From Candidatus Latescibacterota bacterium (lineage in GTDB: Bacteria > Latescibacterota > UBA2968), in NCBI GenBank assembly GCA_965222605.1, contig OZ244960.1, positions 1,344,001-1,408,000 on the forward strand: a stretch of 64,000 bases of DNA, in the 5' to 3' direction. This document shows positions 27,932 through 32,958 of this stretch, in pieces. The position numbers were made by a program, and so were the translations under genes. The notes beneath the pieces were generated by a model. That model was not told the origin of the DNA. It saw nothing but the letters and a program-made list of their open reading frames with translations, and did no database searches. Within the stretch, counting starts at the first letter, position 1; every line of letters begins with the position of its first letter.

Positions 27932-28452
27932 AACAAAGCCGACCCGCCTCTACCTCGACATCCATCCGTACGCAACTCGTGCCACCTCTTCCATCACGGG
28001 TTCATCGGTATTGCGCCGTTTCAGGATCTTAAAACCGTGATCCGCGGTATCCACCACATGAAGCGTCGCATTCTTCAGATTATCCACCACCGGCTGCAAC
28101 AGTTCTAAATTCGCCATCTTATCCCGCTGACCCGATAAAAACAGCATCGGCACGCGTACATCCCTCAAATGCTCGGCGCGCTCTGTACTTGGCTTACTCG
28201 AATACAGCGGAAAAGCGAAAAACACAATACCCTCCAGCCCGTCAACAGGTTCTTCGGCACAAGCCATCGATACCATCCGCCCGCTCATCGAATGCCCGCC
28301 AGCAAAAACCGGCAACCCGCGCGCCTGCTTCATCCCCATCTCTATAGCCGCACGCACAGTAGCCAACCGCACCTTCTCGCCATCCATACCACCACCGCCC
28401 CTCTCGGAATAGGGATAATTGAAGCGCAAAGTCGCAATCCCTACATCATTCA

Positions 28453-28650
28453 ACGCATCGCTCAGTTCCTGCGTGACTACTCCCAACGATAGAGCAGTTG
28501 GGCTTCTTGGCGGTTAGGTCGCCTGACGTTGTAGCCCCAACGTCAAAATGTTTATGGCAGCATTGAGGTCTCTGTCTGCTGTATAGCCACACGCCTTGCA
28601 ATTGTGTACACGATCAGAGAGTGCTTTTTTCTCTCTATGTCCGCATGCCG
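28453..28650 (-). ncRNA. predicted TnpB omegaRNA (scaffold over the tnpB 3' end and right end; guide from the flank, GCAGGAACTGAGCGATGCGT)
   Basis: inferred from known TnpB biology; right-end boundary at 28473 is seen, 5' limit is approximate. Confidence 0.5.
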
Positions 28651-29638
28651 AGCAATCTTGTGAGGTGTATTCAGGATTGACAGCCTTGAATCCAATACCA
28701 GCCTCTTCCGCTTTGTATTCGAGACAGTGCCGAAACAGTGACCATGCTACGTCTGCTATTGATTTAGACAATCGCCTGTTCTTTTGCATCTTTTTTACTT
28801 TCAATTTCTCGACGGCTATGAAGCCGTGACGATTGACAATTTTTCTTGATTCTTGATGGGCAAAGTTATATCGCTTATTACGGATACGCTCATGCACTCT
28901 GGCAATGACTTTACGACGCTTTTCTCTTACGGCGTCGGTCTTAGGTCTTTTTTTCACCGCGTCCCATTTGTGCTGTGCTTTGGCAAGCGTTTTTTGCTCT
29001 TTTCTAAAGAATCGCTGGTTGGCTATTGTCTGTCCGTCACTGGTGATAGCAAAGGAATTGAGACCCACGTCAATGCCAACGGCAGAGCCAGCGTCTGCTT
29101 TCTTACTTATGTCGCCTATATCGCAAGAGATAGTAGCGAACCACTTGCCCGTGGCTGTGCGCGTGACGGTGCAAGACTTAGGCATACCCTCAAGTGGCCT
29201 GTGCTGGACAATGCGAATACAGCCTATTTTGCCTAATCGCAAGCCCTTATCGTCCAATCGGCATCCATTGGAAAACTGAGGATAGGTGATAGAATCATAG
29301 CGATTTTGACCCTTGTATCTGGGAAAGCCTGCTTTCTCGCCCGTCTTTGCACGCTCTTTGAGACGACGAAAGAATGCTTTGAATGCCCAATCTACTCTTG
29401 TGGACACCTGTTGCAATACCTGACTATATACTTGCTTGAATGCAAGATGCTGCTGCTTCAGCAATGGTATTGTTTTGGTCTGTTCATAACGAGACAAACT
29501 TTCTTTATTCTTTTGCCATGCTTGGACTCTCGCACAGACAAGCTGGTTATATAGCAAGCGACATTCTTCAATATGTGCCAGCAAGATTTTCTCTTGCTTT
29601 TTCGTTGGGCGCAGTCTGTATTTGAAGGACTTAAGCAT
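28514..29638 (-). CDS. tnpB: RNA-guided endonuclease TnpB
   Basis: N-terminal KYRLRPT HTH, RuvC residues GIDVG, AVEKL and DRDLNAA, zinc finger CSAC/CKAC. Confidence 0.95.
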   Translation of the reverse strand: MLKSFKYRLRPTKKQEKILLAHIEECRLLYNQLVCARVQAWQKNKESLSRYEQTKTIPLLKQQHLAFKQVYSQVLQQVSTRVDWAFKAFFRRLKERAKTGEKAGFPRYKGQNRYDSITYPQFSNGCRLDDKGLRLGKIGCIRIVQHRPLEGMPKSCTVTRTATGKWFATISCDIGDISKKADAGSAVGIDVGLNSFAITSDGQTIANQRFFRKEQKTLAKAQHKWDAVKKRPKTDAVREKRRKVIARVHERIRNKRYNFAHQESRKIVNRHGFIAVEKLKVKKMQKNRRLSKSIADVAWSLFRHCLEYKAEEAGIGFKAVNPEYTSQDCSACGHREKKALSDRVHNCKACGYTADRDLNAAINILTLGLQRQAT

Positions 29639-29673: not shown

Positions 29674-29997
29674 GCTATTTTTCGTAGAATTAACGGACGA
29701 ATCACAATGATGAAGTGCTGGCGCACTTGTACACCGCTCCACCGCCCATATCGCCTTGAGCGATATGCCCAATGCTAAAGCACCACACCATAAAACCAGA
29801 AGCCCTTCGCCATGCGGCCCACACCTGAAGGGTGAGGGTTTTACGGGCTGTTTGATAAAACGATGCCGCATATTCGTCCCCGACCCGTGCCCCAACACCA
29901 ATAATGCCTTTGCCCCGCGCGGTCGCGCGTACAAAGCCGACACATCACCCTTTTCTTCGGTCGCAATAAATTTCAACTCTCTGGATTCAACAGCCAT

Positions 29998-30832: not shown

Positions 30833-30940
30833 AGTTTATGCTCCTTTTCCATATTTAATTATGGCCTAAAAGACATAAAATAGCAAGTAAGAAAAGAGCT
30901 ATTTTGCCGTTCCTTTATAATTCCCGCGTAACTTCAAAAC

Positions 30941-30969
30941 TTGCATCAATTGATAGAACTGCGTATAGT
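30941..30969 (+). promoter_or_regulatory. putative sigma70 promoter
   Basis: TTGCAT-17 bp-TATAGT upstream of the sulfatase. Confidence 0.5.
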
Positions 30970-31020
30970 GTGTATCTAAAAATTCGGAGTAGGCTCGGCG
31001 CAATCATCGAAAGGAGACGC

Positions 31021-32379
31021 ATGCAACCCAACATCATCTTGATCAACTGTGACGACCTCGGCTACGGTGACCTCGGCAGTTACGGCTCTAAAATTAACAA
31101 AACACCAGCACTCGACAAAATGGCTGCAGAAGGCATCAAATTCACCGACTTCTACATGGCATCTCCCGTGTGTTCGCCCTCTCGAGGAGCCATGCTCACG
31201 GGCTGTTATCCCCCGCGCATTGGCTTTGGCTCTTTCGACGGGCGCTGGGTCCTCTTTCCCGGCCAGGGTGTGGGATTAAATTCCAGCGAAATCACCATCG
31301 CCAAACTCCTAAAGAACAAAGGTTACGCCACCAAAATTGTCGGCAAATGGCACTGCGGAGACCAGCGAGAATTTCTGCCCACTCGTCACGGATTCGACAG
31401 CTATTACGGCATTCCATATAGCAACGACATGGGGATACAAAAAGAAGACGACCACAATCCACCTCTGCCCTTATTGCGCGACGAGGAAGTCATCCAGGCA
31501 CAACCCGACCAGCGCGGCATCACCGAACGCTACGTCGAAGAAAGCGTCCGCTTCATGCGCGACAACAAAGACCAGCCCTTCTTTCTCTACCTCGCCCACA
31601 TGCACGTCCACCTGCCCCACTATCCCCCCGAAGCCTTTGTCCGCGAATCTGAAAACGGCGTATATGGTGCAGCAGTCGCCTGCATTGACTGGGCGGCCGC
31701 CGTCATTTTCGACGAACTCAAATCTCTGGGACTTGACGACAACACCCTTGTCATCTTCACCAGCGACAACGGCTCTCGCGCCCGAGACGAAGGCGGCAGC
31801 AACAGCCCTTTGCGCGCCACCAAAGGCACCACATGGGAAGGCGGCCAGCGCGTGCCGTGCCTTATGCGATGGCCCGGCAAAATTCCCGCGAGCGAAGTGT
31901 GCAACGAACTGACATTATCCATGGACTTTTATCCCACGCTTGCAGCCCTCGGCGGTGCAGAAGTGCCTACCGACCGCATCATCGACGGCAAAGACATCCG
32001 CGCGCTCATGTTCGCAGAAGAAGGCGCGACATCGCAACACAAATCCTTCTTTTACTACAAACGCAACAGCATCGAAGCCGTGCGGAGCGGCAAATGGAAA
32101 CTCCACATCCGCAAAGACGATCAGGAAATCCAGGAACTTTACGACCTCGAAGCCGACATCGGTGAAACCAATGACATCAGTGATCAACACCCCGACATTG
32201 TGCAGAACCTCATGGCGCAAATTGACGCCTGTCGCAAAGACCTCGGAGACGATGCCGCCGGCATAACAGGCGAAAACATCCGCCCTGCCGGCCGCGTTGA
32301 AAACCCCGACACCCTCACACATCTCGACCGCGACCATCCCTACATGATCGCTATTTACGACTTGAAAGAGCGGGGTTAA
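31021..32379 (+). CDS. arylsulfatase A-like sulfatase
   Basis: [28 protein letters not shown]; AAGGAG RBS. Confidence 0.92.
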
Positions 32380-32380
32380 T

Positions 32381-32552
32381 ATGGCTCTTACACCCGAACA
32401 GAGTCTTCTGGCACTGCAACATCCTGCACGCAACCTCTCAAAACACCAGCAACAACATCCGCTATGGCCTTTTCGCCCGCCTGCCTCATAAAGACCAGGA
32501 GACATTCCGAGATGAAATTCCCGATGACCTCTGGAAACGCTGGCGGATTTAA
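32381..32552 (+). pseudogene. internally deleted PhyH-family gene remnant
   Basis: MALTPEQ start joined out of frame to VFWHCNILHATSQNTSNNIRYGLF...DDLWKRWRI*. Confidence 0.65.
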
Positions 32553-32569
32553 CAAAAAGGAGATTTGAC

Positions 32570-32920
32570 ATGTCAAAAATCACCATCTACCACAACCCCA
32601 ACTGAAGCAAATCCAATGGCGCAATGGACATTTTGCGCGCCGACAACGTCGAGTTCGACGTGATTGAATATTTAAAAACACCATTGAGCGAACAGGACCT
32701 GAGAAAATTTCTCGCACTCCTGCCCGGTGAACCCAAAGACCTGATTCACCCCAGTTCTTTTGAAGACTTAGGACGCGACATGGATGACTACAATACGCCC
32801 GATGCACTCATCGATTTGCTCCTGGAACACCCCGAAGTCATGAATCGCCCCGTGTGTATTCGCGGGGACCGTGCAGTCATTGCCCGTCCCTCAGAAGCCG
32901 TGCATGAACTCCTCACTTAA
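32570..32920 (+). CDS. arsC: ArsC/Spx-family (arsenate reductase-like) protein with in-frame UGA, probable selenoprotein
   Basis: AAGGAG RBS; MSKITIYHNPN[TGA 32603-32605]SKS in frame with ORF 32624..32920; IEYLKTP, HPEVMNRP, ARP. Confidence 0.8.
32607..32636 (+). promoter_or_regulatory. candidate bacterial SECIS hairpin
   Basis: GCAAA/TTTGC and TCCA/TGGA stems with a G-containing apex immediately 3' of the UGA. Confidence 0.5.
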
Positions 32921-32922
32921 AA

Positions 32923-32958
32923 AAATAGCCGCCGAGACCTGAACCTCGGCGGCTATTT
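32923..32958. terminator. bidirectional intrinsic terminator
   Basis: AAATAGCCGCCGAG...CTCGGCGGCTATTT between convergent genes. Confidence 0.85.

Follow-up and report, generated by a model that had tools for sequence, protein, structure and literature searches.

The 64,000-nucleotide stretch of Latescibacterota DNA analysed here (the window, to which positions refer unless another contig or locus is named) carries a short gene for an ArsC-fold protein of 116 residues; its codon 12, an in-frame UGA, very likely encodes selenocysteine (Sec), likely with the help of a hairpin whose loop lies 46 nt downstream. The protein is likely a redox enzyme with one working selenol and an anionic substrate that is not arsenate, and we put the probability of this reading as a whole at roughly 0.6.

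In the table-11 list of open reading frames the gene begins at 32624 instead and encodes 98 residues. A hidden start upstream of that frame had been proposed in the preliminary description, and the proposal holds: an ATG at 32570, preceded by a Shine-Dalgarno-like sequence, opens a frame of 116 codons that ends at a TAA (32918-32920), and translation with TGA as U gives 116 residues with the N-terminus MSKITIYHNPNUSKS (Table 1). A purine-rich stretch similar to the Shine-Dalgarno-like sequence lies 5' of the gene in most of the 30 homologous loci compared. That the TGA occupies the position of the catalytic cysteine was likewise borne out, phmmer placing codon 12 on Cys12 of E. coli ArsC. The gene is mis-annotated without its catalytic residue, and the N-terminal active-site segment is missing in 57 of the 120 database homologs listed.

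Table 1. Features of the selenoprotein gene and its flanks
Feature	Position in the window	Strand	Basis or remark
PhyH-family dioxygenase gene remnant, ~580 bp deleted and a frameshift	32381..32552	+	comparison with L015; outside the selenoprotein gene
Shine-Dalgarno-like AAGGAG	32557..32562	+	7 nt 5' of the ATG
ArsC-fold selenoprotein gene, 116 aa, motif HNxxUxxS	32570..32920	+	frame with TGA as U; profile and structure matches
In-frame UGA, predicted Sec12, codon 12	32603..32605	+	aligned to Cys12 of E. coli ArsC
Hairpin 1, UGA-to-loop distance 19 nt	32619..32638	+	fits bacterial SECIS consensus; loosely conserved; also in Cys homologs
Hairpin 2, stem of 6 bp, AGUU loop, UGA-to-loop distance 46 nt	32646..32661	+	frozen in Sec-coding homologs
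His60 codon, replacing Arg60 of the arsenate-site triad	32747..32749	+	alignment, orthologs
Arg93 (Arg94 of E. coli ArsC), retained	32846..32848	+	202/202 loci
Arg106 (Arg107 of E. coli ArsC), retained	32885..32887	+	202/202 loci
Terminator-like 14-bp hairpin	32923..32958		z -7.2; between the selenoprotein gene and a convergent HpcH/HpaI aldolase gene

The selenoprotein translation matched PF03960 at 41.8 bits (cut-off 24), and its best family was TIGR00014, at 88.5 bits, below the curated cut-off of 106.05; elsewhere the same profile gave 93.4 bits for an ortholog (L034) and 137.3 bits for a copy with Cys (L153). Scores were 41.6 bits against a cut-off of 75.05 for TIGR01617 (Spx/MgsR), the motif being UxxS with CxxC absent, and 19.4 bits against a cut-off of 121 for NF008107 (YffB). 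An AlphaFold2 model, built with C in place of U, had a pLDDT of 87 and superposed on ArsC structures with TM scores of 0.82-0.85, and ArsC structures were the closest solved folds.

The genome, a single contig of 6.34 Mb, encodes the machinery for Sec. A search for selA, selB, selC and selD, whose lack had been set beforehand as grounds for abandoning Sec recoding, found all four, with profile matches of 490 bits for selA, 78 bits for wing 3 of selB and 365 bits for selD and, as selC, a tRNA-SeC(TCA); selD itself has an in-frame TGA. It is followed directly by selC (G000:C1:3613020-3614142), and selA and selB adjoin elsewhere (1084528-1087559).

Matches at E <=1e-25 were present in 99 of 168 genomes of the phylum. 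Across these 168 genomes, an upper tier of 51 matches (>=168 bits) had one TGA each, and a lower tier of 56 matches (<=105 bits) had no stop at all. Codon 12 is TGA, in an intact frame, in 51/51 orthologs, the most distant of them 62% identical, and the TGA is therefore not an error. A nonsense mutation or sequencing error, the alternative considered at the outset, was rejected on this conservation; with the intact frames, the frozen hairpin described below and the complete Sec machinery also standing against it, its probability is virtually nil. As judged from the sequences, Sec is very likely inserted at this UGA.

A codon-model scan gave further probable selenoprotein genes in the same genome. 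There is a second candidate of the ArsC superfamily, Spx/MgsR-like with UxxC (G000:C1:6123675, minus strand; L038:2359-2709, minus strand), which scores 82.6 bits with TIGR01617, above the cut-off, has the TGA in many relatives within the genus and carries a proximal hairpin with its loop at 23 nt. Other probable Sec TGAs on G000:C1 lie at 2204388(+), 3554541(-), 4752139(+), 5997329(+), 5974347(+), 2857984(+), 113400(-) and 2304521(+). Going by their motifs, we take these eight to comprise a Prx/Bcp protein (TGGU), a deiodinase-like protein, an amidohydrolase (GHGU), two thioredoxin-like proteins (GCxU), a UGSC protein, an AhpC-like protein (UxxC) and a DUF1223-like protein (UxxC).

Two hairpins follow the UGA, and their support comes from conservation, because folding energy alone is not striking for either (z of -1.1 in the region of hairpin 1 and -2.2 in that of hairpin 2). 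The bacterial SECIS consensus, as given in the available text of PMC13188914, has a loop of 3-9 nt with a G within its first two nucleotides, 16-37 nt from the UGA, and an MFE <=-7.5. Hairpin 1 agrees with it in loop size, in the G within the first two loop positions, in distance from the UGA and in MFE (-9.5 kcal/mol). All five of its pairs are present in 62 of 79 loci that encode Sec and His60 (Sec/His60), in 16 of 30 that encode Sec and Arg60 (Sec/Arg60) and in 7 of 14 close Cys loci; it is not conserved specifically with the UGA, and its loop sequence varies, some orthologs having no G.

Hairpin 2 behaves differently in this respect, the AGUU loop and 6/6 pairs being present in 109/109 TGA loci and the AGUU loop in 0 of 14 close Cys homolog loci, where the stem is partly kept (6/6 pairs in 6 of the 14). 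Among 28 representatives less than 90% identical, 7 of 69 degenerate codon columns use a single codon, and five of these seven are the consecutive codons 26-30 that make up hairpin 2. The unpaired loop G belongs to a Glu codon that is GAG in 28/28, and elsewhere the Glu columns contain both GAA and GAG. The VEFDV stretch that hairpin 2 encodes is missing from three Cys-bearing His60 proteins, for which the comparison used protein sequences alone. No compensatory double changes were found in hairpin 2 (0 pairs), covariation was no higher than in shuffles, and the only changes were single ones tolerated through G-U pairing. Hairpin 2 agrees with the consensus in its small loop with G-[G/U], its stem (4-16 bp) and its conservation with the UGA, and departs from it in spacing, with the loop at 46 nt against 16-37 nt, behind the looser hairpin 1; the hairpin loops of the 10 other putative selenoprotein genes analysed from this genome lie 18-32 nt from the UGA. 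The terminator-like hairpin beyond the stop codon was not listed by the consensus scan.

The preliminary description had taken the stem-loop directly after the UGA as the SECIS; this is the weaker candidate, and the Sec-linked hairpin is the second one. It is nevertheless conceivable that recoding is real and hairpin 1 is the SECIS, hairpin 2 being a separate element such as a translational pause, an enhancer or a protein-binding palindrome. The agreement of hairpin 1 with the published consensus (PMC13188914, available text), its full pairing in most Sec/His60 loci and the proximal hairpin in the selD of relatives are all consistent with this, against which stand the variable loop and the equal frequency of intact stems in Sec/Arg60 and Cys loci. 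Moreover, the sequence of hairpin 2 occurs once in the genome at <=1 mismatch, which argues against a regulon palindrome. We hold this alternative to be possible and somewhat doubtful, and prefer hairpin 2 as the probable SelB-binding element, with hairpin 1 probably serving to shorten the spacer. Should the SECIS be the distal hairpin, programs that look for bacterial selenoproteins with the 16-37 nt rule overlook a class of them.

The residues around Sec12 were compared with those of E. coli ArsC, whose numbering was fixed by the R60K/R60A mutant chains. The phmmer alignment, which has no N-terminal gaps, places His60, Arg93 and Arg106 on Arg60, Arg94 and Arg107, and equivalents of His8, Ser15, Arg94, Arg107 and Pro108 are all retained. 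Arg60, Arg94 and Arg107 form the arsenate-site triad (PMC3169414, available text) and are reported, in the accessible parts of PMC3169414 and PMC5593903, as essential for arsenate reduction. Two arginines had earlier been thought replaced. The loss of Arg60 stands, with His in 51/51 orthologs and both His codons in use; the supposed loss at position 16 does not, that residue being R in 33 of the 79 Sec/His60 loci (N in 45, L in 1) and lying outside the triad according to the available text of PMC3169414.

Pooling genomes and metagenomes gave 226 loci, of which L052 was dropped (motif absent) and 202 were distinct. By residues 12 and 60 these comprised 79 TGA/His60, 30 TGA/Arg60, 92 Cys/Arg60 and one TCA/His60 locus, and the Cys/His60 combination was seen in three database proteins. 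The single TCA locus (L203:1317-1661) is a gene of the His60 clade with a Ser codon at position 12 and hairpin 2 kept, which reflects either an error in the reads or Sec having been lost recently. The dropped locus (L052:2900-3300) is a Thermoanaerobaculia homolog whose N-terminal motif and remainder lie in different frames, a possible frameshift or assembly error.

In a quick IQ-TREE run on 131 representatives and an outgroup (117 columns) the His60 sequences formed one group of 46 rows (SH-aLRT 97), whose sister was a group with Arg60 drawn from Binatia, Deltaproteobacteria, Actinomycetota and other taxa. Since that sister group mixes Sec and Cys members, the alternation of TGA and Cys that the preliminary description had looked for among homologs is seen. 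His60 appears to mark one clade, nearly all of it Sec-encoding, and likely arose after Sec was gained. The clade would offer a natural panel of Sec/Cys by Arg/His combinations for studying the role of "arsenate reductase" selenoproteins.

Genes that would place the protein in arsenic metabolism were sought among its neighbours and across genomes. The earlier remark that no ars genes lie nearby was confirmed, none being found next to the Sec/His60 gene among the neighbours scanned in its own and related loci. We found no acr3, arsB or LMWP-type ArsC in the genome itself, and no acr3, arsM or arsB in 21/21 genus genomes, each with the Sec/His60 gene; this search for an arsenite exit covered acr3, arsB and arsM. 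Among 61 relatives 11 have acr3, and an LMWP-type ArsC motif lies within 1.5 kb of acr3 in 3 of 6 acr3 loci examined. In seven genomes a Cys/Arg60 copy accompanies the Sec/His60 gene. Given the lack of acr3, arsB and arsM in the 21 genus genomes and the Cys/Arg60 copy in these seven relatives, arsenate detoxification by the Sec/His60 protein is unlikely. The Cys/Arg60 copies were also without ars genes beside them in the loci scanned, and most genomes with such copies lack acr3 and arsM too; missing ars genes therefore do not single out the His60 clade.

The supply of thiols was surveyed in the same genomes. Searches of 61 genomes gave no gshB, and searches of 21 gave neither an E. coli-type gshA (PF04262) nor bshC; a GCS2-family ligase was present in 21/21 genomes, and there was one Grx-like gene. 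The genome under study, for all its numerous predicted thiol/selenol redoxins, has no gshB, gshA (PF04262) or bshC, and no thioredoxin reductase in it passes the TIGR01292 cut-off; it encodes a short TrxB-like FAD protein of 186 aa at C1:4968223.

Judged by Arg60, by the profile cut-off and by efflux genes, the protein falls outside the R773-type arsenate reductases. It could still be a genuine arsenate reductase, the higher reactivity of Sec making up for the change from Arg60 to His, a proposal that draws on the retained His8, Ser15, Arg94, Arg107 and Pro108 equivalents, on the ArsC-like fold of the model and on the sister clade, where Arg60 is kept with Sec or Cys. We consider this unlikely in view of the lack of acr3, arsB and arsM to remove arsenite in the genus genomes searched, the lack of gshB in 61 genomes and of E. 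coli-type gshA in 21, the separation from ars genes in every locus scanned and the reported requirement for Arg60 (PMC5593903 and PMC3169414, available text). The doubt about arsenate expressed in the preliminary description is thus shared here, the substrate being a prediction. The exchange of Arg60 for His and the invariant distal hairpin together make a non-arsenate substrate likely.

A second proposal, that the protein serves sulfate-ester or sulfur metabolism within a sulfatase operon, was suggested by the gene order. The gene had been described as the end of such an operon, which is not supported: the PhyH-family remnant intervenes between the sulfatase gene (30904-32379) and the selenoprotein gene, and within the genus the sulfatase context is found at only part of the loci, other genera having different surroundings. 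The PhyH-family gene is intact in L015, L018 and L019, and a contig of run X21 spans the remnant without a gap; RNA run X7 has another joint at the remnant (47 skipped, 140 letters between). Favouring the proposal are a sulfatase gene that lies upstream, at most 1.5 kb away, in 9 of the 21 loci from the genus, the others having nuclease-like, PIN-like or transposase inserts, and the two such loci of family f3 scanned (L140 and L148), both with a sulfatase upstream and a cysD-like gene (PAPS reductase domain) downstream. Opposed to it are the other genera, which place the gene among leuB/HMGL-like, metF/ahcY, phosphoesterase, peptidase or other genes, and the fact that Cys copies adjoin sulfatases too. 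Furthermore, the genome holds ~136 sulfatase-like and 87 PhyH-like loci, so adjacency to a sulfatase says little, and we regard a role in a sulfatase operon as improbable.

The site just upstream of the gene is an apparent insertion hotspot in the genus, with varied inserts (a PD-(D/E)XK protein, a PIN-like pair, a transposase-like ORF) at L009, L010, L012-L014, L016 and L022-L024. Farther upstream in the window, an ORF on the minus strand (28514-29638) is presumably TnpB/IS605-like and seemingly interrupts an alpha/beta-hydrolase gene, whose N-terminal part we take to lie near 29860-29997 and whose remainder at 27950-28486.

A mechanism can be sketched for the preferred reading, a one-selenol redox enzyme with a non-arsenate anionic substrate. 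During translation SelB would bind the AGUU loop of hairpin 2, while hairpin 1 would fold up 20 nt of the spacer and so bring hairpin 2 within reach. In the protein, His8 and Ser15 would position the selenolate of Sec12 for attack on a substrate held by Arg93 and Arg106, for which our guess is an oxidised sulfur species, for example a mixed disulfide or an S-sulfonate, in line with what has been proposed for YffB, a relative of ArsC. His60 may act as an acid/base or alter specificity. The selenenyl adduct would then be resolved by an external thiol or redoxin, because Cys96 is not universal (59 of 79 Sec/His60 loci). More tentatively, and with less confidence than an even chance would warrant, the His60 clade may be a distinct Latescibacterota selenoenzyme subfamily that has left arsenic chemistry and turned to another redox substrate, within a Sec-ArsC family that as a whole uses a two-hairpin SECIS, with SelB on the distal hairpin, whose strong constraint would fix five residues (N/G/D-VEFD) of the protein.

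Of the known systems, ArsC of E. coli plasmid R773 (PDB 1I9D, 1JZW), which is glutaredoxin-coupled, shares the fold (TM 0.84-0.85), ~35% identity and His8, residue 12, Ser15, Arg94 and Arg107 with this protein. Here, however, Sec replaces Cys12, His replaces Arg60, the C-terminal extension is absent, there is no ars operon, and glutathione synthetase was not found in the genomes searched. The YffB/ArsC-related thiol reductases (PDB 1RW1, 2KOK) share the ArsC fold and an incomplete arginine triad, and a non-arsenate thiol-reductase role has been proposed for YffB-type relatives (PMC3169414, available text). They differ in that identity is ~20%, two arginines and HNxxUxxS are kept here, the NF008107 score is far below its cut-off, and the Lys93/Asn60 signature, which the accessible text of PMC5593903 assigns to YffB, is absent.

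The gene appears by its sequence to belong to a selenoprotein family predicted since 2005. In the available text of the studies concerned, Sec "Arsenate reductase (ArsC) 1" with UxxS (COG1393/pfam03960/TIGR00014) was represented by 14 Sargasso Sea sequences (PMC1088965), and Sec arsenate reductase with UxxS by 77 GOS sequences (PMC2398784); the family also figures in a review, in whose accessible text such families are functionally largely uncharacterised (PMC13188914). Neither His60 nor a 46-nt hairpin is discussed in the available text of these three papers, and we found no publication that describes either a clade with His60 or a distal SECIS for the Sec-ArsC family, subscription journals and BSepDB being outside the scope of the search. 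With the Sec ArsC 1 family the present gene shares UxxS at Cys12, the ArsC fold, an in-frame UGA followed by hairpins and truncation by gene callers; what sets it apart is His60 in place of Arg60 across a Latescibacterota clade and a Sec-linked hairpin with its loop at 46 nt.
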